Shown here: positions 858 to 21,636 of the stretch, one piece after another | Position numbering within the stretch: position 1 is the first letter of the stretch | Layout: each line of letters opens with the position of its first letter | Position numbers and translations under genes: made by a program | NCBI GenBank assembly: GCA_964344595.1 | Contig: CAYFNV010000017.1 | Span: 3,660-67,659 of the forward strand | Length of the DNA: 64,000 nucleotides | Source: an uncultured Nitrospina sp. | GTDB taxonomy: Bacteria > Nitrospinota > Nitrospinia > Nitrospinales > VA-1 | Direction of reading: 5' to 3' | Notes under the pieces: model-generated | Told to the model about the DNA's origin: nothing | Databases searched by the model: none | Seen by the model: the letters and a program-made list of their open reading frames with translations, nothing else

Positions 858-1553
858 TCAACTCTGCTTGGGAGGAAGTTCTACTCCTATAGACTCCAGA
901 TACCTGAGGTAAGATTGGAATTCTGGGGTTTTCCAAACTGCCGGAGAGATGGGGACTTCTATATCTTCTAAATCCTTGATCATGTTCTCATAGTTGCGCC
1001 TCATATATTCTGGCAGGCTGATGTCCACTGATTTTAGATATTTCAATACACCTGGGTCCATTAAAATATGCGGAGGTAGTGTGGAAATAGTCTTATTCGT
1101 GATCACATCCGGCGGATCGGTTCTCTTGTTATATGACCGCGATGGGGTTCTGTTCTCAGATACAATATTTGGTTTTCGTGCTGAACGTGGTTTTGAGATG
1201 AGTACTGGTGGACTGCCTGAGTTTTCCTGCAATATCCAAATTCGACTATTGACCAAATCATCGCTCCAGACTTCCACACGGGTATAATCTGTGAATAATC
1301 TGGTTATTGCAGTTTTCCAGTCATCTGCTTGAATATCAGCTGTCAGGTTTTTATTTCGGATGCCATAACCAAGGGTAAAAATAATTCCTGTCTTGTCTGT
1401 GATTTCCTGAGCGGCTTGTTGCAATTCTATAGAATCAAACTTTATGTGTATCCCATTCTTGTCCTGGTAGATTCCATCACCAGCTACTGCATAGGAAGTG
1501 GAGAAACCTAGGGTCACCAAGGTTATTAATGAAAAAACTATATAGTGTTTCAT
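858..1553 (-). CDS. Secreted hypothetical protein, STN/secretin-N0-like domain plus conserved C-terminal LPPHIL module (paralogue of 4547..5323)
   Basis: The ORF track gives 858..1598. The internal Met at 1553 starts a typical signal peptide (MKHYIVFSLITLVTLGFSTSYAVAG). Motifs shared with 4547..5323 are IxA(D/N)DWxTAxxxL, VEVWxDxLxxSRxWxL, LPPHILxxPGVL and ISPxxxxxPxF. Confidence 0.6.
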   Translation of the reverse strand: MKHYIVFSLITLVTLGFSTSYAVAGDGIYQDKNGIHIKFDSIELQQAAQEITDKTGIIFTLGYGIRNKNLTADIQADDWKTAITRLFTDYTRVEVWSDDLVNSRIWILQENSGSPPVLISKPRSARKPNIVSENRTPSRSYNKRTDPPDVITNKTISTLPPHILMDPGVLKYLKSVDISLPEYMRRNYENMIKDLEDIEVPISPAVWKTPEFQSYLRYLESIGVELPPKQS

Positions 1554-1761
1554 GACGTTCATACTTTTTATAAAACCAATGTGTTTATCATAAATCAAAT
1601 TTTATTGAAAAACAAAGCGCAGAACTTGAGCCATGGCTTTAAACATTTCCAGTTAATTGAGTTTTATGACAAATTATTCAGGTTTGTAAAAATTTTTCAG
1701 TTTAACTTTAGGTTTTGTTTTAAAATGAAGTTACAAAAAAATTATTGGTAAGGAGGTTTCT

Positions 1762-2197: not shown

Positions 2198-3538
2198 CTA
2201 TGATTTTTCCGAGTTGATGAATTTTTTCAGGAAGGGGAACATGGCGCCACGTTTTTCGATCATCTCTTCGCGTGATTTTTTTACTACAGTTTCATCAATG
2301 ATACGGATGTCACGTTCGGCGGCATACTTCTCAATGCCTTTCACCACCATACCTCGCGCGAAAGATGGAATGCGTTCGAGCCGACTCTTGGCTTCCGGTG
2401 TCCATTGTGTTTGAAACTCGACTTCGAGTCCGAGTGTATCCTCGACTTTTAAGGTAATGGCCTTGCCGCCATATTTTCCCGGTTCGTAATCGCAGGAGGG
2501 ATCCGGATCCATATAATTTCCTGTTTCGGCAAAGGCGCGAGCCCTGCAGCCGGAACACAATGCGGAAAACTCACAGGTACCGCATTTACCATCCAGCCCT
2601 TTGCGGTCTCTCAACTCAATCATCAGCGGTGCATTTTCCCACAGGTCCTTAAAGCTTCTGGACTTTAAATTTCCCACAGACTCTTCGATGAAGGGGCAGG
2701 GTGTCAGATTGCCCTCTGGTGAAATGCGGCTGTAATGTGTGGCCGCCGGGCAGCCACCGGAGTAGGTGCGTGTGTAAACCGATTCGGGATCATTCTCATA
2801 AACAACGCGTTTGTATTGCGGTGCACATTTGGAGTTGATCATCAACTTGCCTTTATATTTCATCTGTTGCTCATAAAGCAGTTTCAAGGCTTCTTCATAA
2901 GCGGCGTTGGATATGTCAGTATTGCCTTGTCCACGCCCTGTGCAGACCAGGAAATATAAATTGAATGCAATGGCACCAATCTTTTCTGTGAACTCAACCA
3001 CTTCAGGAATTTCCTTATAGTTCATATCCGAGACGGACATCTGCACGAGAAAGTCAACACCGACTTCGTTCAGAATGTCAAAGGCTTCCATGGAAAGTTC
3101 CCAGGCTTTTTCTACTCCTCGAAACTTGTTGTGCTTGTCCGGATTCATAGAGTCAATGCTGATTCCCACGCCATGTGCTCCAGCGGCTTTTATTTTTTCT
3201 GCGTTGACACGGTTGATCATGGTGCCGTTGGTGCCTAGCACGACCATGAACTTTTTGTCGGCGGCATAACGAATGATTTCATAAATGTCAGGCCGTAGAA
3301 GAGGTTCGCCGCCTGTGAGAATGAGAAACGCGTTAGGGTTGACTTCCGCAATCTGGTCGATGACGCGAAAACATTCTTCGGTATTGAGTTCGTCCGTCTT
3401 GAGTCCGCCCCGAAACTCTGCATCAAGGTAGCAGTGGTCGCAATTGAGGTTGCACCGCTTGGTGAGGTTCCAGGATATTGAGTAGGCACGGAAATCCATT
3501 TTTTCCGGGCTAAACTCCAGTGTTGGGTTTGTTTCCAT
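2198..3538 (-). CDS. Radical SAM / SPASM-domain enzyme with C-terminal PCP_red-like domain (NirJ/AhbC/AhbD-like family)
   Basis: CNLNCDHC (CX3CX2C) cluster motif and TGGEPLLRPD near the N-terminus. SPASM-type Cys motifs GGCPAA...TPCPF and CGTCEFSALCSGCRARA. The C-terminal ~80 aa (QWTPEAKSRLERIPSFARGMVVKGIEKYAAERD) resembles the PF08369 domain. Confidence 0.85.
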   Translation of the reverse strand: METNPTLEFSPEKMDFRAYSISWNLTKRCNLNCDHCYLDAEFRGGLKTDELNTEECFRVIDQIAEVNPNAFLILTGGEPLLRPDIYEIIRYAADKKFMVVLGTNGTMINRVNAEKIKAAGAHGVGISIDSMNPDKHNKFRGVEKAWELSMEAFDILNEVGVDFLVQMSVSDMNYKEIPEVVEFTEKIGAIAFNLYFLVCTGRGQGNTDISNAAYEEALKLLYEQQMKYKGKLMINSKCAPQYKRVVYENDPESVYTRTYSGGCPAATHYSRISPEGNLTPCPFIEESVGNLKSRSFKDLWENAPLMIELRDRKGLDGKCGTCEFSALCSGCRARAFAETGNYMDPDPSCDYEPGKYGGKAITLKVEDTLGLEVEFQTQWTPEAKSRLERIPSFARGMVVKGIEKYAAERDIRIIDETVVKKSREEMIEKRGAMFPFLKKFINSEKS

Positions 3539-4546: not shown

Positions 4547-5323
4547 TCAGGCTTTTGGGGCCAGGATTCCATTTGAATTAAGGAACTGCTTGAAAGTCGG
4601 GTCGTTGAGGATGTGTGGTGAGATCGGCATATTGGCTGGCAATCCTTCAAGGTTGGGACCGAACATTCTCTTCACGTTTTCAGGGAGCGCGATACCTTTT
4701 GATTTGAAGAAGGTCAATACCCCCGGCTCAAAAAGAATATGCGGGGGAAGATTCTCAATTTTAATTTGAGTATTGGCAACCGGTGCAGGAACTGCCGCGG
4801 CTGGGACCGGTGCAGGAGCCGGAGCTGAACGGAAACGAGGTTGACGTTGAACTGCTGCCCTGGTTTGCCGTGGCGCCCGGGCAGTTTCTGCCACTTCAAC
4901 ATTCCTTCCACCTGATAAAAGCCAGACCCTGCTGGTTGCCAGGTTGTCTGTCCAGACTTCTACACGGCTGAATCCTTTTAAAAGTTTGCGAACCGCTGTT
5001 TCCCAGTCATTAGCCTGAATACGGGCACTAAACGGAACGGTTTCAAGGGAAGGATCAACGGAAAATAAAATGCCGGTTTCGTCCTGAATATTTTTTAATA
5101 CATCCAGCAGAGTCAGGTCCTCAAACTGGAGACTGATCCCTTCAGGTTCTGTTTTGGATTTGTATACGGGATTGGGCGGAATACTTGGAGCGGGAGTGGG
5201 AACAACTTCAGGAGCCGGGAGTTGTTTCTGTTCTTTCAAATCAAGAAACCGCGCATCGGCAGACACCTGCCACAACACGAAACCGGTGCCAAGAACGATC
5301 CCTGTCTGGATAAAACGCTTCAT
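4547..5323 (-). CDS. Secreted hypothetical protein, STN/secretin-N0-like domain, Pro/Ala-rich linker, C-terminal LPPHIL module (paralogue of 858..1553)
   Basis: GGAGGA RBS upstream of ATG 5323 and an N-terminal signal peptide (MKRFIQTGIVLGTGFVLWQVSA). Contains ISLQFEDLTLLDVLKNIQDETGILF...IQANDWETAVRKLL...VEVWTDNLATSRVWLL, a PAPAPVPAAAVPAPV linker, and LPPHILFEPGVL. Confidence 0.65.
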   Translation of the reverse strand: MKRFIQTGIVLGTGFVLWQVSADARFLDLKEQKQLPAPEVVPTPAPSIPPNPVYKSKTEPEGISLQFEDLTLLDVLKNIQDETGILFSVDPSLETVPFSARIQANDWETAVRKLLKGFSRVEVWTDNLATSRVWLLSGGRNVEVAETARAPRQTRAAVQRQPRFRSAPAPAPVPAAAVPAPVANTQIKIENLPPHILFEPGVLTFFKSKGIALPENVKRMFGPNLEGLPANMPISPHILNDPTFKQFLNSNGILAPKA

Positions 5324-5538: not shown

Positions 5539-7566
5539 TCAGTTGGTCTTATACCAGACTCCCAGATCGACAATTTGTGGATTGTAAATCCCACAGAAGT
5601 CGTCTCTGCATTGGCTGGTACCATAAGTCCCGACCCGGCATTGATAGCTATAGCCGATGTTGCAATAGGTATTATTGCCTATTGTTCCACCATACCCGGA
5701 GAGGAAGTCATGGCCTCCTCCAAAGGTGGGGCCGTAGCTACTGTTGTCGTACTGTTGGTGGATGCTTGAATGTTGCCCCGGTGAACTGTGTTTAAAGTTG
5801 TTGGTCAGTGAAAACAGGAAACCGTTTGAGTTCCCGGTATAGTTACCTGCACTCGTCCAAGGCACAGCCGCGTAGCCACCAATTTTCCTGCCAGTGCTCA
5901 AAGTTGCAACCATGAAAGTCTCCCCCTTATTGTCGCACTGGTTGTGGAAGGTTGAAGTGTTGGATCCATCGGTACTGAGACGGTAACACTCTGTCCACTG
6001 TTGACCTGGTGTCCCAAGCCAGGTGTTGATCTGATCGACATCTGACTGGGTGAGTAATGGCGGTGGAGGCGGCGGTGTCGCCGTGTCAAAGTCATCCACA
6101 TATTCAAGCCCAGAAGGTAATACTAATGTGTCATCCGTGATTCCCAGCATGACTGCACGGTATTGTAAGCTGCTAATGTTTTGCGGTCGTGCTGAACCGG
6201 AAACGAAGATGACGGTGCTGGTTTCTTCAGCAGGTATAACAAGGTTAACGATATGTTTATGGGTCGCCTGACTATTAGTGTGTTGCCAAACATCCGCACC
6301 GTTAACCGCAATGCTGGCTTTTTCACCCCACCCTGAATATGCAGTCTGGTGAGTATGCACTGTCCAGGTTATATCGGACGATGTAGTATTCTTGACCCTG
6401 AAAAGAGCGGCAGCATGCTTTCCGGTAGTGGATGAATACATAGTATACTGCTCAGCCCAAACCAGGGCATTTTTGTCCGCATATCCCTTTTTGGTGAAAA
6501 GGTTGCGTATCTTATCAAAATTTTGACCCATCATACCTGCAGTGCCATTTGAATCACCCCATACATTAGGAGCTACACCGCCAAAAAGATTGCTGTCGTT
6601 ATTAGCATACCAGCCACCTGTTTGATCATAATCCATCCAGACTGCCCAGCGATAGATAGCACCTGTGTGGGAATCTCCTGGGTCACCTTTAGGACCTTGG
6701 GGGCCTGTATCACCTTTTGGTCCTTGAGGACCTGTCGCACCCGTCGCACCGGTTGCTCCTGCTAATCCGGTTGCGCCGGTTGCACCCGTGTCACCTTTTG
6801 GACCCTGTGGTCCCGTTGCGCCCGTTGCACCCGTGTCACCTTTTGGACCCTGTGGTCCCGTCGCGCCGGTTGCACCGGTATTACCTTTAGGTCCTTGTGG
6901 TCCCGTTGCGCCCGTTGCACCCGTGTCACCTTTAGGTCCCTGTGGTCCCGTTGCACCAACTGCACCGGTATCACCTTTTGGACCCTGTGGTCCCGTTGCG
7001 CCGGTTGCACCCGTGTCACCTTGCGGTCCCTGTGGCCCGGTTGCGCCAACTGCACCGGTATCACCTTTCGGTCCCTGTGGTCCGGTAGCGCCCGTTGCGC
7101 CGGTGTCACCCTTTGGTCCCTGTGGCCCGGTTGCACCGACTGCACCGGTGTCACCCTGCGGACCCTGTGGTCCGGTTGCACCGACTGCACCCGTGTCACC
7201 CTGCGGTCCCTGTGGTCCGGTAGCGCCTGTTGCACCTGTGTCACCCTGCGGTCCCTGAGGACCCGTTGCGCCAACTGCACCGGTTGGACCTTGTGGACCG
7301 GTATCGCCTTTTGGTCCGGGGGTCAGTTCAATATTGGCGAGTTCCTGTTCCAAGGCATCAATCTCTACCTGGAGAGCGTTGACCTTTTGTCGAAGTCCTC
7401 TTTTGCGCCGGTCATCGTCATCATCCTTATCTTTGTCTTTATCTTTCTTTTTTTGCGCAAAGGCTTGGCTGGAAAATACAGGGTCAGCAATCAACACATT
7501 ACTGACCAGATTAAAGATAAAAAACGAGACTGTGAATAGCGATACTGCTACAGGTAGGCGGCGCAT
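5539..7566 (-). CDS. Secreted collagen-like triple-helix repeat protein with beta-rich middle domain and C-terminal TLDc-like domain (675 aa)
   Basis: GGGGAG RBS. MRR plus a long hydrophobic leader ending AFA-QKK, then a K/D-rich stretch and a heptad segment [25 protein letters not shown]. Uninterrupted Gly-X-Y runs from aa 84 to 298. A PPPPPP linker follows. The C-terminus carries [14 protein letters not shown]...IGGYAAVPW...NGFLFSL...[11 protein letters not shown]...VDLGVWY. Confidence 0.9.
6673..7317 (-). repeat. Collagen Gly-X-Y coding tract built from about 11 tandem near-identical 45-bp (15-aa) units
   Basis: The unit GDTGA(T/V)GATGPQGP(Q/K) repeats back to back. The 45-nt periodicity is visible directly, e.g. 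6788-6832 vs 6833-6877. Confidence 0.9.
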
Positions 7567-7872: not shown

Positions 7873-8811
7873 TCAGGTTTTATTTTTTCCCATGGCCGCA
7901 TGGATATTTTTAAAGATTGATAGCCCTGATTTTGATCCGGGTTCAAGGTCCAGATAAGTGCGGGCAGCTGTTTCCGCCTGTTCAAACTTTTTCAGATAAT
8001 AAAAGACATAGGCTTTATTGAGGTAAAGCCTTGCAGGAATTTTATTCTGGGAAGGATGGTTCTTATATAACTGTTCGGCTTTATCATAAACTTCTTTGGC
8101 TTTCAAAAAATTTCCCATTCTCATATAGACTCCACCGAGGTTGAGATGGTTGACAGGGAAAGAAGGGTCAAGACGAATCGCTTCTTTGTAGGCGGAGACA
8201 GCTGCTGGCATATTTCCTCGTCGACTGTAAATGATCCCCATCTTGCTTTGAGCTTGAGACATAAATTTGGGAGAGGGGTTGGACTGCATCAATCCCTGAA
8301 TACTTTCAAACGCCTTATCAAAGTTTAACTCCATTAAATAATGGTGGCTGAGGTTTTGCCATGCACGGGTCTTTCCCGGTGCCTTATTAACCGTGTCCTG
8401 CCATAGAGCGATGTTTGACCGGTGCGTTGCGTTCCGGTCGATCAGCAAAACGGTATGAAGTGCCAGAATCGTGAGAAGCCCAACGGTTACTGTATGGCGA
8501 ATGGTTTTAGATTGAGAGACGAATAAAGAAGTCGCACCTGAAGCCATGAGCAAAAAAACTCCAAAAGACGGGATGTATAAGTTTCGTTCGCTCAGCAGGT
8601 TCAGGTCAATCGATTTCCCAAGACGGGGTATAAAACTGTTGCTAGGTGCTATGGTTAACAAAAACCATAAACTGCAAAAGACAATCCATTTTGCATGCCT
8701 TGGAAAACACCTGGCGGCACCCACCGTTAGAATAATTATTACCAGAAGTGGCCATGCCATCAATGCAGGTTGGGGGAAGAAGCCTTCAGGGAAGTTATAG
8801 TCAAACGTCAA
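7873..8811 (-). CDS. TMTC-like membrane/TPR protein, C-terminal half (4 TM segments + TPR repeats); probably the distal part of a split gene
   Basis: Hydrophobic N-terminal segments with SERNLYIPSFGVFLL (the family motif aeRxlYlPsiG), followed by TPR-like repeats (AWQNLSHHYLMELNFDKAFESIQ, GIIYSRRGNMPAAVSAYKEAIRLDP, LGGVYMRMGNFLKAKEVYDKA). The TTG start is only the first start codon after a stop in this frame. Confidence 0.65.
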   Translation of the reverse strand: MTFDYNFPEGFFPQPALMAWPLLVIIILTVGAARCFPRHAKWIVFCSLWFLLTIAPSNSFIPRLGKSIDLNLLSERNLYIPSFGVFLLMASGATSLFVSQSKTIRHTVTVGLLTILALHTVLLIDRNATHRSNIALWQDTVNKAPGKTRAWQNLSHHYLMELNFDKAFESIQGLMQSNPSPKFMSQAQSKMGIIYSRRGNMPAAVSAYKEAIRLDPSFPVNHLNLGGVYMRMGNFLKAKEVYDKAEQLYKNHPSQNKIPARLYLNKAYVFYYLKKFEQAETAARTYLDLEPGSKSGLSIFKNIHAAMGKNKT

Positions 8812-8846: not shown

Positions 8847-9623
8847 CTATGATTGGCTTTGTTGCAGGGCATGATAAAAATCAATTTTTCCCCACCATTT
8901 AATAACCATCGTTGTTATAACCGGAACATTTAAAATGGCAATCGTTCCACAGGCAAGCAGGGGAAGATAAAAGTAATGGAAACGGGTTTTACGGTCACAC
9001 CATTGATCCCCATTCATGAAACAGAAATCGTATAACAGGTAAATGGCAGGGAGGGAGAGGCTGACCTCTTTACTGAAAAACGCCGCTATGAATAGAAGAA
9101 TACAAATTAAATAGCAAATCAGGCGTGATGCTTTAGTCCTTTCCCGAAGCCCCGCGATTATAAAAAACAAAAACGATGAGAAATAGAACAACCCCGCCAG
9201 CCCTGAAGTCCGCCCTGATATATAAGACACGGTTTCGGTGTGGACCGGGCTCAATGCAAAGAACAAGGTGGTGGTCACGGAAATGGGAGTGGCCACCTTC
9301 CTCTCCCACTCAGTTCCCCTTTGAAGGGTTATATGAACAATGAAAAAGATGATGAGGCTTGTTAAAAAATGCAGGGAGATATTGAACACGTGGTAGCCGA
9401 ACGGGTCCAGTTGTCCCAGTTTCTTGTTGATGGCAAAGCTCAGGAAAAACAGGTGCCGGTATTTGGGGGGGAAGGGATCGAAAAACTTCTCATCGCTTTG
9501 GGAAATGACCGTGCTGTCATCAAGGGTAAAGGGAGATTTTAGCGTGTTGCCATAAGCCAGCGCGACAACCAGCAGCAATAGGGCACCAAATGCAACAACC
9601 TGCCTGCGGGATAAGTCCTCCAT
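8847..9623 (-). CDS. TMTC-like / DUF1736-type (GT-C, PMT-related) membrane protein, N-terminal half
   Basis: YGNTLKSPFTLDDSTVI, GYHVFNISLHFLTSL, LSPVHTETVSYISGRTSGLAGLFYF and FSKEVSLSLPAIYLL match the N-terminal membrane domain of bacterial TMTC-like TPR proteins. The ORF ends 35 nt before the next ORF, which is in another frame. Confidence 0.65.
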   Translation of the reverse strand: MEDLSRRQVVAFGALLLLVVALAYGNTLKSPFTLDDSTVISQSDEKFFDPFPPKYRHLFFLSFAINKKLGQLDPFGYHVFNISLHFLTSLIIFFIVHITLQRGTEWERKVATPISVTTTLFFALSPVHTETVSYISGRTSGLAGLFYFSSFLFFIIAGLRERTKASRLICYLICILLFIAAFFSKEVSLSLPAIYLLYDFCFMNGDQWCDRKTRFHYFYLPLLACGTIAILNVPVITTMVIKWWGKIDFYHALQQSQS

Positions 9624-11450: not shown

Positions 11451-11846
11451 ATGTCTTTACCGGTTGTAGCTGTATTTGCCCTGGGCACAGGGGTAGAACT
11501 TTATGGTTTGAAGTATGTGAGTGATGTGATCAGCATTCTCAACACGGTATCCTTAATCATGTTCACTTTTCTGGTGGGTATTGTTGTCAGCCGCAGTTAC
11601 GGTGCTGAGGTCTTTGAAAAAATGCAGAGGCAGTTGAAGTCACGGGAAGTCCCCGGCAACGAGGCCCTGAACGGTGCGGTGATGGGGGTTGCCAGTATGT
11701 TACTCATAACTCCGGGAGTTGTGACGGACATAATTGGTCTCCTGATCATGACTCCGCTCACTCGCGGGCTGTTCATAAAAATTGCTGCGGATATCACACG
11801 AGATAGAATTCAATCCGGTCAACCCTACTTCTTCTTCAAGGACTAA
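11451..11846 (+). CDS. fxsA: FxsA family membrane protein (UPF0716)
   Basis: 131 aa, with N-terminal TM helices and the family hallmark LLITPGVVTDIIGLLIMTPLTRG. Confidence 0.7.
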   Translation: MSLPVVAVFALGTGVELYGLKYVSDVISILNTVSLIMFTFLVGIVVSRSYGAEVFEKMQRQLKSREVPGNEALNGAVMGVASMLLITPGVVTDIIGLLIMTPLTRGLFIKIAADITRDRIQSGQPYFFFKD

Positions 11847-16313: not shown

Positions 16314-16949
16314 TTGCCATTGATACGGCATTTTTCCTATTACCTTACCCGGCTTTTAATAAAAACACCGATAGTGCCAAATCAGGTTACCACGTTGTCT
16401 TTATTATTTGGGTTGGCCTCTGGAGCAGCATGTTTGAAAGGGACTTATAGCTATACACTTCTAGGCGCGTTTTTTTTGCTCATATGCTATGTGCTCGATA
16501 ATTGTGATGGAGAAATTGCCCGCTTAAAAAATATGTGTAGCCATTTTGGCATGAGGTACGACACGTTTGTAGATTGGGTTGTCCACACTGTTTTCTTTGT
16601 TTGTCTGGGCTGGGGTGCGACTGCGGCCATGGGACAGGAATGGTGGCTGTGGGTGGGTATCGTAACAGGGCTGGGGGGCACCATTAATTATGGTATAGAA
16701 CTATATCAAAACAAAACCCAGCTTCATGCCAGCCAATTGCCTGAAAAAGAAACGATGAAAAAAGATGACGATACGGATATAGATCGGTTTGTATTGAACG
16801 CCCGTATGGTACGTAGTGACTTTTGTTTCATCGTGTTGTTTTTAAGCTTGGGAGGGGTGCTTTGGTATCTTCTTCTTCCCGCTGCTATTGGTGCTCAGGC
16901 TTATTGGTGTCTGCAATTTACCCGAAGCGCACGTCGCTGGCACGTATAA
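16314..16949 (+). CDS. CDP-alcohol phosphatidyltransferase family protein (small, 211 aa)
   Basis: Exact family motif DG-x2-AR-x8-G-x3-D-x3-D in DGEIARLKNMCSHFGMRYDTFVD, with multiple TM segments. The TTG start is uncertain. Confidence 0.8.
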   Translation: MPLIRHFSYYLTRLLIKTPIVPNQVTTLSLLFGLASGAACLKGTYSYTLLGAFFLLICYVLDNCDGEIARLKNMCSHFGMRYDTFVDWVVHTVFFVCLGWGATAAMGQEWWLWVGIVTGLGGTINYGIELYQNKTQLHASQLPEKETMKKDDDTDIDRFVLNARMVRSDFCFIVLFLSLGGVLWYLLLPAAIGAQAYWCLQFTRSARRWHV

Positions 16950-16954
16950 CAATC

Positions 16955-17962
16955 ATGAAACCACTAAAGTTATTGTATCTGCTGATAGGAGTAGGTCTGT
17001 TTGGATTTGTGTTGAACCATACAGACCTTCCTTTGGTTTGGTCTCAGTTAAATAAAATAGGATGGGGCATTTTGGTGGTGTTGGCTGTTTATAAAATTGC
17101 TTTTATTGTGGATACTTTTGCATGGCAGATTACTTTACCCAGTACACAGCTCACTAAAAAATGGTTGTATAATCTTTGGAAGGTTCGCATGGTTGGAGCT
17201 GCTTTCGGTAAAATGTTGCCTTTAAGTGCTTTTGGAGGAGCACCCATAAAAGGCTTTGTTCTTAAACGCTATTATGGAATTCAATACAGAGAAGGAACAG
17301 CATCATTGATTCTGGCAGAATCCACTCATTTGATTTCCATGGTTTTGTTTATGGCTACGGGTGTTTTTCTTATTCTGCTTGATTCCAACCTTCCAGGAAG
17401 TTTCCATTTTTTCGCGGTCATTAGTTTAAGTGCTATCGCTATCGGGATTTTTTTGTTCTATCTTGTCCAACGCTACAAGATTACTTCGTTAACTGGTACG
17501 TGGCTTAGCCAGCGAAAGTTTGGGCAATGGTTGGAAAAATTCATCCATCATATCCACGATATGGATGAGAGGTTGGTTCAGTTTTATACTCGTGACAGAA
17601 GTCGTTTTCTTTCAGCGTCATTTTTGAATCTTATTAACTGGTTTTTAGGTGCACTGGAAATATTTGTCATTTTTTATTTTTTAGGCAACCCTATTACAAT
17701 TGTTGAGGCCATAACTCTGGAAACACTTGTTGAGTTGGTCAGGGCAGGAACATTTTTCATCCCTGCTACTTTGGGTAGTCAGGAGGCAGCCTTTATGGTT
17801 GCAACGGGAGCGATAGCCGGGCAGACAACGTTGGGTGTTGCCGCCTCTTTAATGAGGCGTGTTCGGGAAGTTGTTTGGTTGGCATGGGGTTTCATTATAG
17901 GTCTGGAATATTCACAAAAGCCTTTCGACCTTGCAGAAGCTGCACAGAAAGATTCAGATTAA
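16955..17962 (+). CDS. Flippase-like / LPG_synthase_TM (UPF0104, TIGR00374-like) integral membrane protein
   Basis: The ORF track starts at 16823 and overlaps the previous gene. The ATG at 16955 gives MKPLKLLYLLIGVGLFGFVL and sits directly after the upstream stop. The protein is polytopic, with FGGAPIKGFVLKRYYGI and a pattern typical of the family. Confidence 0.65.
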   Translation: MKPLKLLYLLIGVGLFGFVLNHTDLPLVWSQLNKIGWGILVVLAVYKIAFIVDTFAWQITLPSTQLTKKWLYNLWKVRMVGAAFGKMLPLSAFGGAPIKGFVLKRYYGIQYREGTASLILAESTHLISMVLFMATGVFLILLDSNLPGSFHFFAVISLSAIAIGIFLFYLVQRYKITSLTGTWLSQRKFGQWLEKFIHHIHDMDERLVQFYTRDRSRFLSASFLNLINWFLGALEIFVIFYFLGNPITIVEAITLETLVELVRAGTFFIPATLGSQEAAFMVATGAIAGQTTLGVAASLMRRVREVVWLAWGFIIGLEYSQKPFDLAEAAQKDSD

Positions 17963-18025
17963 GGTTTATGTATTTCAGGTTTTGCAAAGTAACGGATAGT
18001 TTGCCTAAACTAGGTAGTTGATGAT

Positions 18026-18742
18026 ATGAAATGCTTGATCATTATAGCTGGAAAGGGTAGCCGCTTAAAGTCTATGTCTGACAGTAAGCCCCTGACTTCT
18101 TTGTTAGAGGTTCCTCTTGTTGAACGAGTTATTCGTTCTGCATTAGAAGCCGGGGTGGATGGATTTTATGCGGTAGTTGGATATCGAGGTGAGCTGGTCC
18201 GATCTTTCCTTGAAGATTTAGCTGGCAAAATTAGTGTTCCCATAACTGTGATAGATAATACTGACTGGGAAAAGGCTAATGGGCTGTCAGTGCTCAAGGC
18301 GAAAGATTTTTTAAGTGAGCCTTTTTTACTATTAATGGGAGATCATCTTTTTGATCCTGGTATTGTCCGAAAAATGATTGATTATCCCTTGGATGGTGAT
18401 GAGCTTGTCCTTGCTGTCGATCACAATTTAAAAAACCCAATGGTTGATTTGGATGATGTGACTCGAGTTATGGAGAATAAAGGCCTGATTCAGAGTATAG
18501 GCAAAGGAATAGGTGAATACAACTGTTTTGATACTGGAATTTTCCTATGTACTCCAGCGTTATTTTCGGCGCTGGAGAAATCTGCGCGGGACTCTGGTGA
18601 TGACTCACTATCGGGGGGTGTCCAGGTTTTGGCTAAGGAAGAAAAAGTTTGCGTTATGCCGATAGACGGTCTGTTCTGGATTGATATAGATGACCCTGAA
18701 CGGTACAGGCAGGCTGAAAACTATTTGATTAATAATTCCTGA
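18026..18742 (+). CDS. Nucleotidyltransferase (NTP_transferase family), candidate inositol-1-phosphate cytidylyltransferase
   Basis: Intact N-terminal signature IIIAGKGSRLK (GxG[ST]R[LM]), LLMGDHLF, and C-terminal FWIDIDDPERY. It lies in a cluster with MIPS and CDP-alcohol transferases. The substrate assignment is inference. Confidence 0.75.
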   Translation: MKCLIIIAGKGSRLKSMSDSKPLTSLLEVPLVERVIRSALEAGVDGFYAVVGYRGELVRSFLEDLAGKISVPITVIDNTDWEKANGLSVLKAKDFLSEPFLLLMGDHLFDPGIVRKMIDYPLDGDELVLAVDHNLKNPMVDLDDVTRVMENKGLIQSIGKGIGEYNCFDTGIFLCTPALFSALEKSARDSGDDSLSGGVQVLAKEEKVCVMPIDGLFWIDIDDPERYRQAENYLINNS

Positions 18743-18749
18743 AAACATT

Positions 18750-20000
18750 TCAGGAACGTTCGGGGCATTTAACCGAATAAAGCTCCATAGAGCGTAAATA
18801 AATAAGATAGGTAGCGAAGATCGTTGCGCCAATTGCTGCGATAGAGATAAACATATGTACCAAATCGAAAACTGTTGTGAACATAAGAAAATGGATAAAA
18901 TCCCTATTGGCGAGTTTATCAACCAATGAGGGTTGTAACTTCGGAGAAGGTTGGTGATTGTTAGAGCTCTTTTTGACAATAGATGCTCCCAGAAGAAAAA
19001 ATGAGGTAAGGCTGGCAAATGCAGCCAATATTCCAATGTATATATACATTTGCTCGCCTGTCGCTTTGCTCATTCCCCACCCAATAGCACTAAACACTAA
19101 GAAGTGAACAATATTGTCGCAAAGAATATCGAGCTTGCCACCTAATTCGGACTCCATGAACTTCAGTCTGGCTATCTCTCCATCTACTCCGTCCACCCAG
19201 GTCGAAAAAACTAGCAAGATGCCACCGTATACATTTGCTTGGTAAGTTCCTTGAAAAAAGAAAAATGCCGAAGATAATCCCATCACAAAACTTAGTAGCG
19301 TAATTTGGTTCGGGCTGATAGGTGTATTTAAAAAAAAGCGGCTGAGTTTTCTGGAAACCGGGCGGGATAAAAGTCTGGTTATTGTGCTGTCATGGTTTTG
19401 GCCAGAGCCTTTAAGCAATTGCTCATGTAAAATATCGAAATCCTTATAGTCTGTTATACGGTGTTTTGTAGGCCCGGATATGTATAGAAAAGCATGTTGA
19501 TCTTCTATGGACTCCTCATATTTTTCTTTGTCATTCGTTTGAATTTTGTGAACCAATGATTCAAGGTGCTTTTCGTTGAGGTGTGAATTTTCAGGAATTT
19601 TTGTGTTGTCCGTATCAGTTTTATCTAATATGGAACTAACTTCTTTTTTATCATGAAGTGCTGAGCCATTAAAAATAAGAACCCGGTTTTTCAGGTTTCT
19701 TAAAGCTTCTTTTAGTTTTTCTGGATCAGAAATCCAATGAATATTTGAGGTGATGCGAAAATCTTCCTCGATAAGATTTGCTAATGGTTTAATATCATGG
19801 GTGTCCATGTATATGATGATGTCATGGAGCCCGCATCTCTGAAGAGTCAGAATGTTTCTTAAAAGGAATGGTACCCCTGCGATGGCCGATCCGTACCACT
19901 CTGTAGCTTTCCATGAATTTGGTGGGGAAGGTAAATAGAGGACTCCACATTTGTTTTGAGGGGAATCTTTGGGTAATAAACTGTTTGTGGTTTCGTTCAT
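18750..20000 (-). CDS. Fusion protein: degenerate nucleotidyltransferase-like N-domain + CDP-alcohol phosphotransferase C-domain (IPCT/DIPPS-like architecture)
   Basis: The C-terminal half has the exact motif DGEIARLKFMESELGGKLDILCD plus about 6 TM segments. The N-terminal ~190 aa has an NTP-transferase-like fold pattern (AIAGVPFLLRNILTLQRCGLHDIIIY) but lacks the GxGtRl loop (VLYLPSPPNSW instead). Confidence 0.75.
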   Translation of the reverse strand: MNETTNSLLPKDSPQNKCGVLYLPSPPNSWKATEWYGSAIAGVPFLLRNILTLQRCGLHDIIIYMDTHDIKPLANLIEEDFRITSNIHWISDPEKLKEALRNLKNRVLIFNGSALHDKKEVSSILDKTDTDNTKIPENSHLNEKHLESLVHKIQTNDKEKYEESIEDQHAFLYISGPTKHRITDYKDFDILHEQLLKGSGQNHDSTITRLLSRPVSRKLSRFFLNTPISPNQITLLSFVMGLSSAFFFFQGTYQANVYGGILLVFSTWVDGVDGEIARLKFMESELGGKLDILCDNIVHFLVFSAIGWGMSKATGEQMYIYIGILAAFASLTSFFLLGASIVKKSSNNHQPSPKLQPSLVDKLANRDFIHFLMFTTVFDLVHMFISIAAIGATIFATYLIYLRSMELYSVKCPERS

Positions 20001-20283
20001 CCGTCAGTGAGTGGATAGAGCCTTTTTAAAATTAGTATATTATAGTGTTCCTCTGATTTTAAGCTGTTTATTTTTATAGATTGTTTTAACAAGGTAGTCA
20101 GGCTTTTGTAAATACTCTAAATTGGAAAATAAAACTGTCCAATACGCTTGCAGGATGTTATTCTCACACAGAATTAAAAAATTTTCCACGATTGTACCTT
20201 ACTTCTTGCTATAACGGCTTTCCGACAGAACCTGTTTGCAACCACTAGAGTGCGATCTTAACAGATTAGGAGATAGACTTTAA

Positions 20284-21636
20284 ATGAATGAAGCTAGTGA
20301 TAACTATAGTGGTTTGGTGAAACAAATTGCACCGCCAAAAGGAAAGTTGGGTGTTTTATTGCCAGGGATGGGGGCGGTTAGTTCGACTCTTATAGCGGGA
20401 GTCTTTCTGGTTAATTCGGGGCATGCCAAACCCATCGGGTCAGTTACGCAAATGTCACGAATACGCCTGGGTAAAAGAGATAACCCGCGGTATCCTTTGA
20501 TTAAAGACTTTGTTCCCCTTGCAGACTTGGATGATATTGAATTTGGTGGATGGGATATTTATGACGATAACTGCTATCAGGCAGCACTGGCTTGTGGGGT
20601 GATTGAAAAGCAGGAGCTTGATCTGGTAAAGGAACAGCTTGAAGGGATAAAACCATGGGCAGCTGTGTTCGATCCCAATTTTGTGAGAAATCTTACCGGA
20701 ACAAATATAAAGAGTGCTCCCAATAAAATGGAGCTAGCCAAACTTTTGATGCAGGATGTTGAAACCTTCAAAAAGGAAAAAGGTTTGGATCGGTTGGTGA
20801 TGTGCTGGTGTGGTTCCACGGAAGCTTATCAGGATTGTATGGACCATGAAGCATTTCAAACATTGGAAGCGTTCGAATCGGCTTTGGAAAATGATCTTGA
20901 TCTGATTCCTCCTTCAATGATTTATGCTTATGCTGCTCTAAAAATGGGAATTCCCTTTGCCAACGGTTCTCCAAACCTTACTGTAGATGTTCCGGCACTG
21001 GTTGAGTTGTCCATCAAAAACAAAACACCTATAGGCGGCAAAGACTTTAAAACAGGTCAAACCCTGATGAAGACGATTGTTGCACCGGGTCTCAAGTCAA
21101 GAATGCTGGGGCTTGATGGGTGGTTTTCCAGTAACATACTGGGTAACCGCGATGGGGAAGTACTGGATGACCCTGATTCATTTCGATCTAAAGAAGTAAG
21201 CAAAGGATCGGTTTTGGAAAGTATCTTGCAGGATGATCTATATCCCGATCTTTATGGTGATTATTACCATAAAATCCGTATCGAATATTATCCACCAAGA
21301 GGGGATGCCAAGGAAGGATGGGATAATATAGATATCCAGGGGTGGTTGGGTCAAAAAATGCAATTGAAAATAAATTTCCTCTGCCGCGATTCAATTTTAG
21401 CTGCCCCTGTAGTTCTGGATCTAGTCTTATTTCTGGATTTGGCTCAGAGGGCTGGGATGAGAGGTGTCCAGGAATGGCTTTCGTTTTATTTTAAATCTCC
21501 TCAATGCAGACCGGATCTCAAGCCAGTGAACTCCTTGTTCGATCAGGATGAGAAGCTGCGTAATACGTTGCGAATCATTATGGGTGAGAAGGTGATTGAC
21601 CACTCAGGCTTGGATTATTACGAAAACAAAGGCTGA
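20284..21636 (+). CDS. ino1: myo-Inositol-1-phosphate (inositol-3-phosphate) synthase
   Basis: 450 aa. N-terminal Rossmann LGVLLPGMGAVSSTLIAG. FANGSPNLTVDVPAL corresponds to NGSPQNTFVPG, and SSNILGNRDG corresponds to SYNHLGNNDG. Also GGKDFKTGQTLMKT. Confidence 0.9.
   Translation: MNEASDNYSGLVKQIAPPKGKLGVLLPGMGAVSSTLIAGVFLVNSGHAKPIGSVTQMSRIRLGKRDNPRYPLIKDFVPLADLDDIEFGGWDIYDDNCYQAALACGVIEKQELDLVKEQLEGIKPWAAVFDPNFVRNLTGTNIKSAPNKMELAKLLMQDVETFKKEKGLDRLVMCWCGSTEAYQDCMDHEAFQTLEAFESALENDLDLIPPSMIYAYAALKMGIPFANGSPNLTVDVPALVELSIKNKTPIGGKDFKTGQTLMKTIVAPGLKSRMLGLDGWFSSNILGNRDGEVLDDPDSFRSKEVSKGSVLESILQDDLYPDLYGDYYHKIRIEYYPPRGDAKEGWDNIDIQGWLGQKMQLKINFLCRDSILAAPVVLDLVLFLDLAQRAGMRGVQEWLSFYFKSPQCRPDLKPVNSLFDQDEKLRNTLRIIMGEKVIDHSGLDYYENKG

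Follow-up and report, generated by a model that had tools for sequence, protein, structure and literature searches.

The subject of this study is a collagen-like gene in a stretch of 64,000 nucleotides (nt; hereafter the window) from an uncultured Nitrospina sp. (NCBI GenBank assembly GCA_964344595.1, contig CAYFNV010000017.1, positions 3,660 to 67,659 of the forward strand). Members of the genus Nitrospina are the main marine nitrite oxidisers. The gene is complete and encodes a protein of 675 amino acids (aa) in which a collagen stalk is followed by two heads: a middle domain that we refer to as MID and, behind a proline linker, a C-terminal TLDc domain (Table 1). It shares a genomic island with a paralogous collagen-like gene, col2. 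An earlier reading of the letters (hereafter the original prediction) had proposed a TLDc head at the end of a bacterial collagen-like protein. We found that its open reading frame (ORF), its PPPPPP linker and the residues that it quoted, including the terminal VDLGVWY, are all present where it had placed them, and that its coordinate arithmetic is correct, with 5542..6054 corresponding to aa 505-675 and 6082..6669 to aa 300-495.

Table 1. Features of the collagen-MID-TLDc gene, its island and other parts of the window.
Feature	Position	Strand	Basis or remark
Collagen-MID-TLDc gene, complete, 675 aa	5539..7566	-	ORF list; stop codon 5539..5541
N-terminal leader, aa 1-37	7456..7566	-	Sequence and hydropathy; putative AxA-type signal-peptidase site
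K/D-rich charged tract, aa 38-56	7399..7455	-	Sequence
Heptad-like segment, putative trimerising coiled coil, aa 57-82	7321..7398	-	Sequence
Collagen triple-helix region, aa 84-299	6670..7317	-	72 G-X-Y triplets; Pfam PF01391, E=1.6e-32
45-nt tandem repeat, 11.3 copies	6766..7272		Collagen-coding DNA
MID head domain, unnamed, aa 300-497	6076..6669	-	AlphaFold2 model and Foldseek; no family match
PPPPPP linker, aa 498-503	6058..6075	-	Sequence
TLDc domain, GPTFGGGHD subfamily, aa 504-675	5542..6057	-	PF07534, PDB profile search, model
hyp258, 258 aa, right island edge	4547..5323	-	Synteny; N-terminal hydrophobic segment
Membrane-plus-TPR ORF	7873..8811	-	Between the two collagen-like genes
Multi-pass membrane ORF	8847..9623	-	Between the two collagen-like genes
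col2, paralogous collagen-like gene, 449 aa	9748..11097	-	Same leader and coiled coil; 44 triplets
FxsA-like gene, left island edge	11451..11846	+	Synteny; Pfam FxsA match on the L081 ortholog
Paralog of hyp258	858..1598	-	33% identical to hyp258
Radical SAM/SPASM protein	2198..3538	-	C-terminal PCP_red domain
Block between TsaB and RNase D	16314..21636		Missing from the matching L081/L082 interval
Hybrid sensor kinase, 1601 aa	29729..34534	-	HBM, HAMP, GAF, PAS, HisKA, HATPase, two receiver domains, Hpt

The leader of the protein begins with MRR, continues with a hydrophobic stretch of about 24 residues and ends in an AFA-type site followed by QKK; judging from the AxA pattern, cleavage would take place after AFA. 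The motif FSSxAFAQ is common to this leader, to that of col2 and to Nitrospina homologs (P0010 and a contig, L081, of a Nitrospina metagenome-assembled genome, MAG), and FSSxAFAQKK together with the coiled coil is present in all collagen genes compared in the window and its relatives. Both col2 and the L081 genes retain the heptad-like segment, a putative trimerising coiled coil from which formation of the triple helix would start. The collagen stalk claimed by the original prediction consists of triplets without a single interruption and would measure about 62 nm if fully helical (0.286 nm per residue); 36 of the 72 triplets have Thr at Y, and 29 have Pro at X. A homolog (P0001), which comes from short marine-metagenome contigs, is 79% identical, and a comparable PPPP linker stands upstream of TLDc in both P0001 and P0005. 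Compared with the P0001 gene, the ratio of nonsynonymous to synonymous substitution rates (dN/dS) comes to 0.20 in MID and 0.195 in TLDc, so that both heads are under purifying selection. A scan for promoters and terminators around the gene found one weak -35/-10 match that overlaps the start codon, with counts no higher than expected from shuffled sequence.

Next, we examined the identity of the C-terminal head, and found that its assignment to TLDc is borne out by the Pfam hidden Markov model (HMM), by a profile search of the PDB and by the predicted fold. The Pfam TLD model (PF07534) matches with 80.3 bits (E=2.1e-22) against a gathering cut-off of 24.5, in an alignment that runs from aa 504 to aa 671 and covers positions 7-167 of the 170 in the profile, and the interval 5542..6054 scanned alone reaches 81.7 bits (E=8e-23, profile positions 8-167 of 170). 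A 39-sequence alignment of the subfamily (A2) served as the basis of the profile search and of an AlphaFold2 model. Searched against the whole PDB, the A2 profile retrieved TLDc chains exclusively (mEAK7 1.7e-12, NCOA7 3.6e-9, Skywalker/TBC1D24 4.3e-9, zebrafish OXR2 7.5e-8); a single-sequence phmmer search of the PDB reached a best E of just 0.009, which marks the subfamily as divergent. The model (predicted local distance difference test, pLDDT, 95.9; predicted template modelling score, pTM, 0.91) superposes on solved structures of the TLDc fold, a beta-sandwich with helices at its flanks: Foldseek returned 16 PDB matches at E<=1e-3 (4e-9 to 8e-4), all of them TLDc and comprising NCOA7, OXR2, mEAK7, Skywalker, Oxr1 and Rtc5p, and the 17th match has an E of 0.23. 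The best of these have template modelling (TM) scores of 0.66-0.75 (TMq up to 0.75), and sequence identity over the 16 is 12-19%. Since the HMM and profile matches are significant and the predicted fold superposes on known structures, the TLDc interpretation stands. We regard it as practically certain that the domain assignments are correct and that the TLDc domain is bona fide.

The subfamily is marked in A2 by the motifs GPTFGGGHD, FHxxCD, GGY..W and FLFSLTN. The 675-aa protein contains six cysteines, every one in the TLDc domain (aa 527, 544, 635, 643, 653 and 658), and in A2 all six are present in 18 sequences, while the pattern CC-CC- is found four times and CCC--C and --CCCC once each. 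This pairwise loss suggests three disulfides, C1-C2, C3-C6 and C4-C5, and because the covariation implies disulfides, the domain would reside in an oxidising, extracytoplasmic location. An extracytoplasmic setting is thus indicated by three lines of evidence: the AxA-type leader, the cysteine pattern and the partner domains described below. With the eukaryotic TLDc proteins (OXR1, NCOA7, TBC1D24/Skywalker, mEAK7/TLDC1 and yeast Oxr1/Rtc5) the window domain shares PF07534, the fold, and the core motifs FH..C, GGY/GGF..W, FLFSL and GGG.D, at an identity to the solved TLDc domains of no more than 15-19%. However, the eukaryotic domains are cytosolic and bind V-ATPase V1, as seen in PDB complexes, whereas the window domain lies behind a leader and a collagen stalk and carries three probable disulfides, features that argue against a cytosolic location. 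If the domain is indeed outside the cell, a role at the V-ATPase is impossible.

An extracytoplasmic TLDc head might nevertheless be catalytic or protective, in a redox capacity or against reactive oxygen species, with the stalk merely placing an enzyme outside the cell. Such a role would echo the 'oxidation resistance' name and the 'domain catalytic' function that was first predicted for TLDc, and TLDc proteins have been credited with protection from oxidative stress (PMC12930195). Furthermore, GPTFGGGHD with its near-invariant His-Asp, as well as FHxxCD, is conserved in both bacterial and eukaryotic members of the subfamily. The eukaryotic phenotype, however, is now tied to V-ATPase binding, the cysteines behave as structural disulfide pairs and not as free redox cysteines, and the domain sits in the C-terminal slot that holds binding-type heads in the paralogs. 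We also know of no enzymatic activity demonstrated for any TLDc domain, which counts further against a catalytic head, and we consider this explanation quite improbable.

To define the spread of the subfamily, we looked for the pattern GPTFGGG[HY]D in a genome set with a single representative of each GTDB species, which gave 97 confirmed places, and kept 80 loci. The places span Nitrospinota (Nitrospina), Myxococcota (many), Bdellovibrionota (Bdellovibrio), Bacteroidota, Planctomycetota, Verrucomicrobiota, Acidobacteriota, Proteobacteria (Burkholderiales) and others, and the GPTFGGGHD-type TLDc was found in at least ten bacterial phyla. PEP-CTERM-type tails are present at about 20 of the 80 loci, as judged by reading the listed C-termini. 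Other fusions involve cysteine-rich Stig1-like repeats and very large multidomain proteins, and TLDc is repeated in tandem in two homologs, twice in P0003 and three times in P0002. Secreted TLDc is common in bacterial genomes and partly curated already, as NCBIfam NF038124 ('PEP_CTERM-anchored TLD domain-containing protein'). This model describes the same GPTFGGGHD-type TLDc and is the best NCBIfam TLD match of the window protein (E=1e-23); however, with 84 bits against a cut-off of 100, and having no PEP-CTERM tail, as its chain stops right behind TLDc, the window protein is a non-member. The NF038124 members differ further in that they are about 230-300 aa long, have no collagen stalk and carry at the C-terminus a VPEP motif that leads into hydrophobic and then basic residues.

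The nearest relatives of the window TLDc domain are bacterial, at 50-60% identity. The subfamily also has members in corals, rotifers and protists, at 30-40% identity, and in its eukaryotic members TLDc is joined to EGF, C-type lectin, Ig or BTB domains. These members, and a literature that treats TLDc/OXR1 as eukaryotic (PMC3462732, in which the function of OXR1 'is not found in prokaryotes'), could suggest that the domain was transferred recently from a eukaryote, such as a marine invertebrate or a protist, and has no established bacterial role. Such a transfer is very unlikely in view of the 97 confirmed places over many bacterial phyla, the bacteria-specific partners such as PEP-CTERM, the closer identity of the bacterial relatives and the dN/dS of 0.2.

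Next, we examined how frequently the domains of the window protein are combined, using aa 293-675 as the query of a homology search. PF01391 and PF07534 occur together in 15 bacterial or metagenomic protein clusters, among them proteins named 'MAG: Nitrospina sp.' and 'Desulfobacteraceae bacterium', and four coral proteins combine collagen, Ig and TLDc. At the 80 species-representative loci, collagen and TLDc are combined twice, once in Nitrospina and once in Desulfatibacillum. In the same homology search, the tandem of MID and TLDc was found in the window protein and P0001 only. The MID-less homologs P0010, P0005 and P0003 carry a two-cysteine mini-domain between collagen and TLDc, C-x-[VIL]-x-D-x-G-x-G-T-A-x-L-x-C-x-D-G-T (also written C-x-V-x-D-x-G-x-G-T-A-x-L-x-C-P-D-G-T), whose place is taken by MID in the window protein. 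The original prediction had further known of no description of a TLDc head on an extracellular collagen stalk. A literature search found no paper on a bacterial or collagen-borne TLDc, and to this extent the statement holds, but the architecture recurs in the databases, in the 15 clusters and in corals. The tandem MID-TLDc head is rare; collagen plus TLDc recurs, and the novelty is smaller than had been supposed. The cnidarian proteins (Orbicella, Montipora and Porites; P0103, P0105, P0110) are of the secreted type and join collagen to TLDc of the same subfamily, but they have Ig domains between the two and a TLDc identity of 33-36%. They are probably an independent combination, as has been argued for the union of the Cthrc1 C-terminal domain with collagen repeats in bacteria and in metazoa (PMC7058181).

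The middle domain, in which the original prediction had seen no nameable motif, has indeed no Pfam match even at E<=1, and none in NCBIfam or PHROG (aa 300-495/497). We describe it through a 43-sequence profile (A1), which was searched against 1.84 billion representatives and retrieved 450 proteins at E<=1e-3, with 296 at E<=1e-30. An Asp-Asp pair in the motif YVDDLD is invariant in A1. MID forms the extreme C-terminus in 110 of the 136 newly retrieved representatives, with the typical ending ...LEYVDDLDTAT, and is preceded by at least eight collagen triplets in 29; a TLDc motif is present in none of the 136. MID and TLDc are alike in being nearly always C-terminal in their proteins. Other members of the MID family lie behind coiled coils or P-domains, or occur as three tandem copies in giant proteins. 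Some of the latter (within P0121-P0130) reach 3554 aa, and three protist transcripts (P0066, P0085 and P0086) carry MID behind a long coiled coil. MID is now defined as an unnamed C-terminal head family of about 450 clusters.

The AlphaFold2 model of MID (pLDDT 94, pTM 0.91) is a beta-sandwich with an N-terminal helical insert. Foldseek against the PDB returned partial matches (TM 0.24-0.40, probability 0.95-1.0) to the PA14 sugar-binding domain of a Marinomonas RTX adhesin, to CBM35/36 modules and to yeast Flo/Epa adhesin domains. The viral library BFVD gave the closest structural match of MID in any library, to an uncharacterised protein of Caudovirales (TM 0.61, E=1e-7); PA14, GLEYA and tail proteins come next. 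The PA14, GLEYA and CBM35-36 domains, which are the top matches in the two libraries, have the same beta-sandwich core as MID, but differ from it in the low TM scores against the PDB and in having no sequence-level match; MID is a separate family. PDB sequence searches with MID and with hyp258 gave chance-level matches only (elastase 0.058, endoglucanase 0.049, KCNQ2 0.33). We take MID to represent an unnamed family of heads with a predicted lectin-like beta-sandwich, and not demonstrably a member of PA14 or CBM. The Cthrc1 C-terminal domain, a candidate taken from the literature on collagen repeats (PMC7058181), was rejected as the identity of MID with an hhalign probability of 0.1%, a weak negative, obtained with an unverified human CTHRC1 sequence as query.

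We then compared the surroundings of the gene. The flanks are ordinary chromosomal genes, syntenic with Nitrospina sp. MAG contigs (L001, L081 and L082), with aa identities of 97% for the radical SAM/SPASM protein, 84% for a methyltransferase, 81% for HDOD, 80% for hyp258, 77% for the FAD oxidoreductase, 74% for TsaB and 62% for cytochrome c. This synteny points to a Nitrospina-related bacterium; an exact-sequence look-up of the 675-aa protein in public assemblies returned no entry. Using hyp258 we fetched 24 metagenome loci and compared their gene orders; hyp258 is 66-82% identical across these loci and adjoins collagen-TLDc genes in close relatives. The same backbone, TsaB, HDOD, FAD oxidoreductase, methyltransferase, FxsA, island, hyp258, cytochrome c, radical SAM, is kept throughout, with aa identities of 62-97%.

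The content of the island is variable. It is empty at five loci (L094, L098, L099, L100 and L103), with a gap of about 240 nt between FxsA and hyp258 in four of the five. It consists of one collagen-TLDc gene with 48-102 triplets and no MID at L088, L089, L092 and L093, of a TLDc fragment at a contig edge at L090, and of two other collagen-like genes with the membrane/TPR pair at L105; in the window it comprises col2, the membrane ORF, the TPR ORF and the collagen-MID-TLDc gene. An extra collagen gene with a different head follows hyp258 at L088/L081, L089 and L090. These comparisons show that the island is strain-variable and that its collagen genes bear interchangeable heads, with stalk lengths that differ between close relatives. 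The col2 gene contains a 99-nt tandem repeat and ends in a head of about 215 aa, which is 41% identical to an L105 gene and has no match in Pfam, NCBIfam or PHROG.

Such an island, with collagen-like stalks of a kind common in phages, where they bear C-terminal receptor-binding domains, could also be the remnant of a prophage, and the gene one for a tail fibre. The Caudovirales protein and the tail proteins among the structural matches of MID, as well as the strain-variability of the locus, fit this possibility. Against it, PHROG has no match for MID, TLDc, the col2 head or hyp258, no phage genes lie nearby, the flanks are housekeeping genes syntenic across Nitrospina, and virion proteins have no use for a Sec-type leader such as the one present here. 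We consider a phage origin extremely unlikely.

The overall layout resembles that of the collagen-like surface proteins BclA of Bacillus, Scl1/Scl2 of Streptococcus and Lcl of Legionella, which likewise combine a leader, a long Thr/Pro-rich G-X-Y stalk built from tandem repeats, a stalk length that is polymorphic between strains and non-collagen globular domains. The NCBIfam models for Scl and Lcl (NF038330, NF038329 and NF046116), however, score the window protein at 125-155 bits against cut-offs of 325-500 (Lcl 155 against 500, SclB 133 against 325) and match the collagen repeats only; furthermore, the window protein is without LPXTG, and its MID and TLDc heads are unrelated to the C1q-like head of BclA and to the V domain of Scl. 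Collectins, ficolins and C1q offer an analogy, as they too consist of a collagen stalk, a coiled-coil neck and C-terminal recognition heads in threes. Their heads are not homologous: in the fold search with TLDc, fibrinogen-like domains appeared only at E>0.2 and TM<0.3.

Taken together, we consider it somewhat probable, at roughly 60%, that the gene encodes a secreted, trimeric collagen fibre at the cell surface, which presents binding heads. The protein would be exported by the Sec pathway and its leader removed, and three chains would zip up through the coiled coil and the triple helix into a rod of about 60 nm that shows three MID and three TLDc heads at its distal end. Both heads would be ligand-binding modules, probably for glycans, and may serve attachment to particles, cells or matrix, or the architecture of the surface. 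The TLDc fold would act here as an extracellular binding module, unrelated to the regulation of the V-ATPase. The modularity of the heads is supported by the paralogs, which have the same leader and stalk but bear other heads, and the variability of the island may reflect selection on an exposed surface structure.

Several points weigh against this proposal. The 675-aa protein has no LPXTG, PEP-CTERM, lipobox or type IX secretion system (T9SS) C-terminal domain, and so no recognised outer-surface anchor by which it would cross or attach to the Gram-negative outer membrane. The hydrophobic leader could be an uncleaved membrane anchor, and the likeness of MID to lectin modules is weak (TM at most 0.40 against the PDB). 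To our knowledge, the V-ATPase is the only ligand for which binding by a TLDc domain has been demonstrated, and no such domain is known to bind a glycan.

The long hydrophobic segment and the lack of any outer-membrane targeting or anchoring signal among those looked for would also suit a protein that lies outside the cytoplasm without reaching the surface. Such a protein would be held at the inner membrane by an uncleaved N-terminal anchor, or move freely in the periplasm, and would lend structure or spacing to the envelope; disulfides would form in the periplasm as well as outside. A rod of about 62 nm, however, exceeds the width generally given for a Gram-negative periplasm, stalks of 42-102 triplets among relatives are hard to square with a spacer of fixed dimension, and presence or absence of the gene between strains is more typical of exposed accessory structures. 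We therefore hold a periplasmic element to be unlikely, and prefer the secreted fibre with binding heads.

TLDc research has been almost wholly concerned with eukaryotic cytosolic proteins, namely with neuroprotection, epilepsy and deafness genes, and V-ATPase disassembly. A 2026 paper sums up TLDc function as oxidative resistance and V-ATPase interaction only (PMC12930195). The present locus does not overturn current knowledge, and the TLDc call itself is a routine Pfam match. It is, however, a clean and well-folded representative of the presumably secreted, disulfide-bonded TLDc domains of bacteria, a large class that has hardly been studied, and with TLDc in the slot where paralogs bear other globular heads, the hypothesis of TLDc as a binding module becomes testable. 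The analysis also defines the MID family, provides evidence for the disulfides and brings to light in Nitrospina a hypervariable island of collagen-fibre genes, an island that may bear on particle attachment or on escape from phages and grazers. As a tentative and, taken as a whole, rather doubtful extension, disulfide-bonded extracellular TLDc may be an old and widespread type of head for the recognition of ligands, which bacteria would mount on collagen stalks, PEP-CTERM anchors and giant adhesins, and which invertebrates would combine with Ig, EGF and lectin domains. Under this extension the cytosolic, V-ATPase-regulating TLDc of eukaryotes would be a specialised branch within a general binding fold, and the Nitrospina protein would correspond in bacteria to the collectins and ficolins, with a tandem of two different heads.

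Further observations concern the neighbours of the gene. The pair of membrane and TPR ORFs, of which the second is in another frame than the first, is also found at L105, at 60-62% identity, and the identical two-ORF arrangement there led us to reject the idea that the pair is a frameshifted pseudogene. By eye, the first loop of the membrane ORF (FTLDDS) and the TPR tail resemble GT-C/TMTC-like glycosyltransferases, with no family match, and the pair could glycosylate the Thr-rich collagen. Neither hyp258 nor the membrane ORF has anything significant in Pfam or NCBIfam. An obligate partnership of hyp258 with the collagen-TLDc gene was rejected as well, as hyp258 is present where the island is empty. 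The hyp258 protein has a Pro-rich linker and a 33%-identical paralog in the window (Table 1), and its residues 64-130 look STN/secretin-N-like by eye. The collagen-like gene that follows hyp258 on two related contigs (L081 12726..14047, broken by a scaffold gap of Ns, and L088 6842..8569) shares the leader and carries a C-terminal head of about 140 aa with the final residues ...EVYTQVKITKLN; this head looks like a putative jelly roll of the C1q/BclA type.

Elsewhere in the window, the radical SAM/SPASM protein, whose C-terminal PCP_red domain is of the protochlorophyllide-reductase 57 kD-like type, is 94-97% identical among Nitrospina relatives, far above its neighbours. The large hybrid sensor kinase appears unrelated to the collagen-TLDc gene. 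Finally, the block that separates TsaB from RNase D has genes for an LPG_synthase_TM-like protein, a CDP-alcohol phosphatidyltransferase and a myo-inositol-1-phosphate synthase, a gene set suggesting the synthesis of inositol phospholipids; it looks like a second variable region, of which L103 has a part adjoining TsaB.

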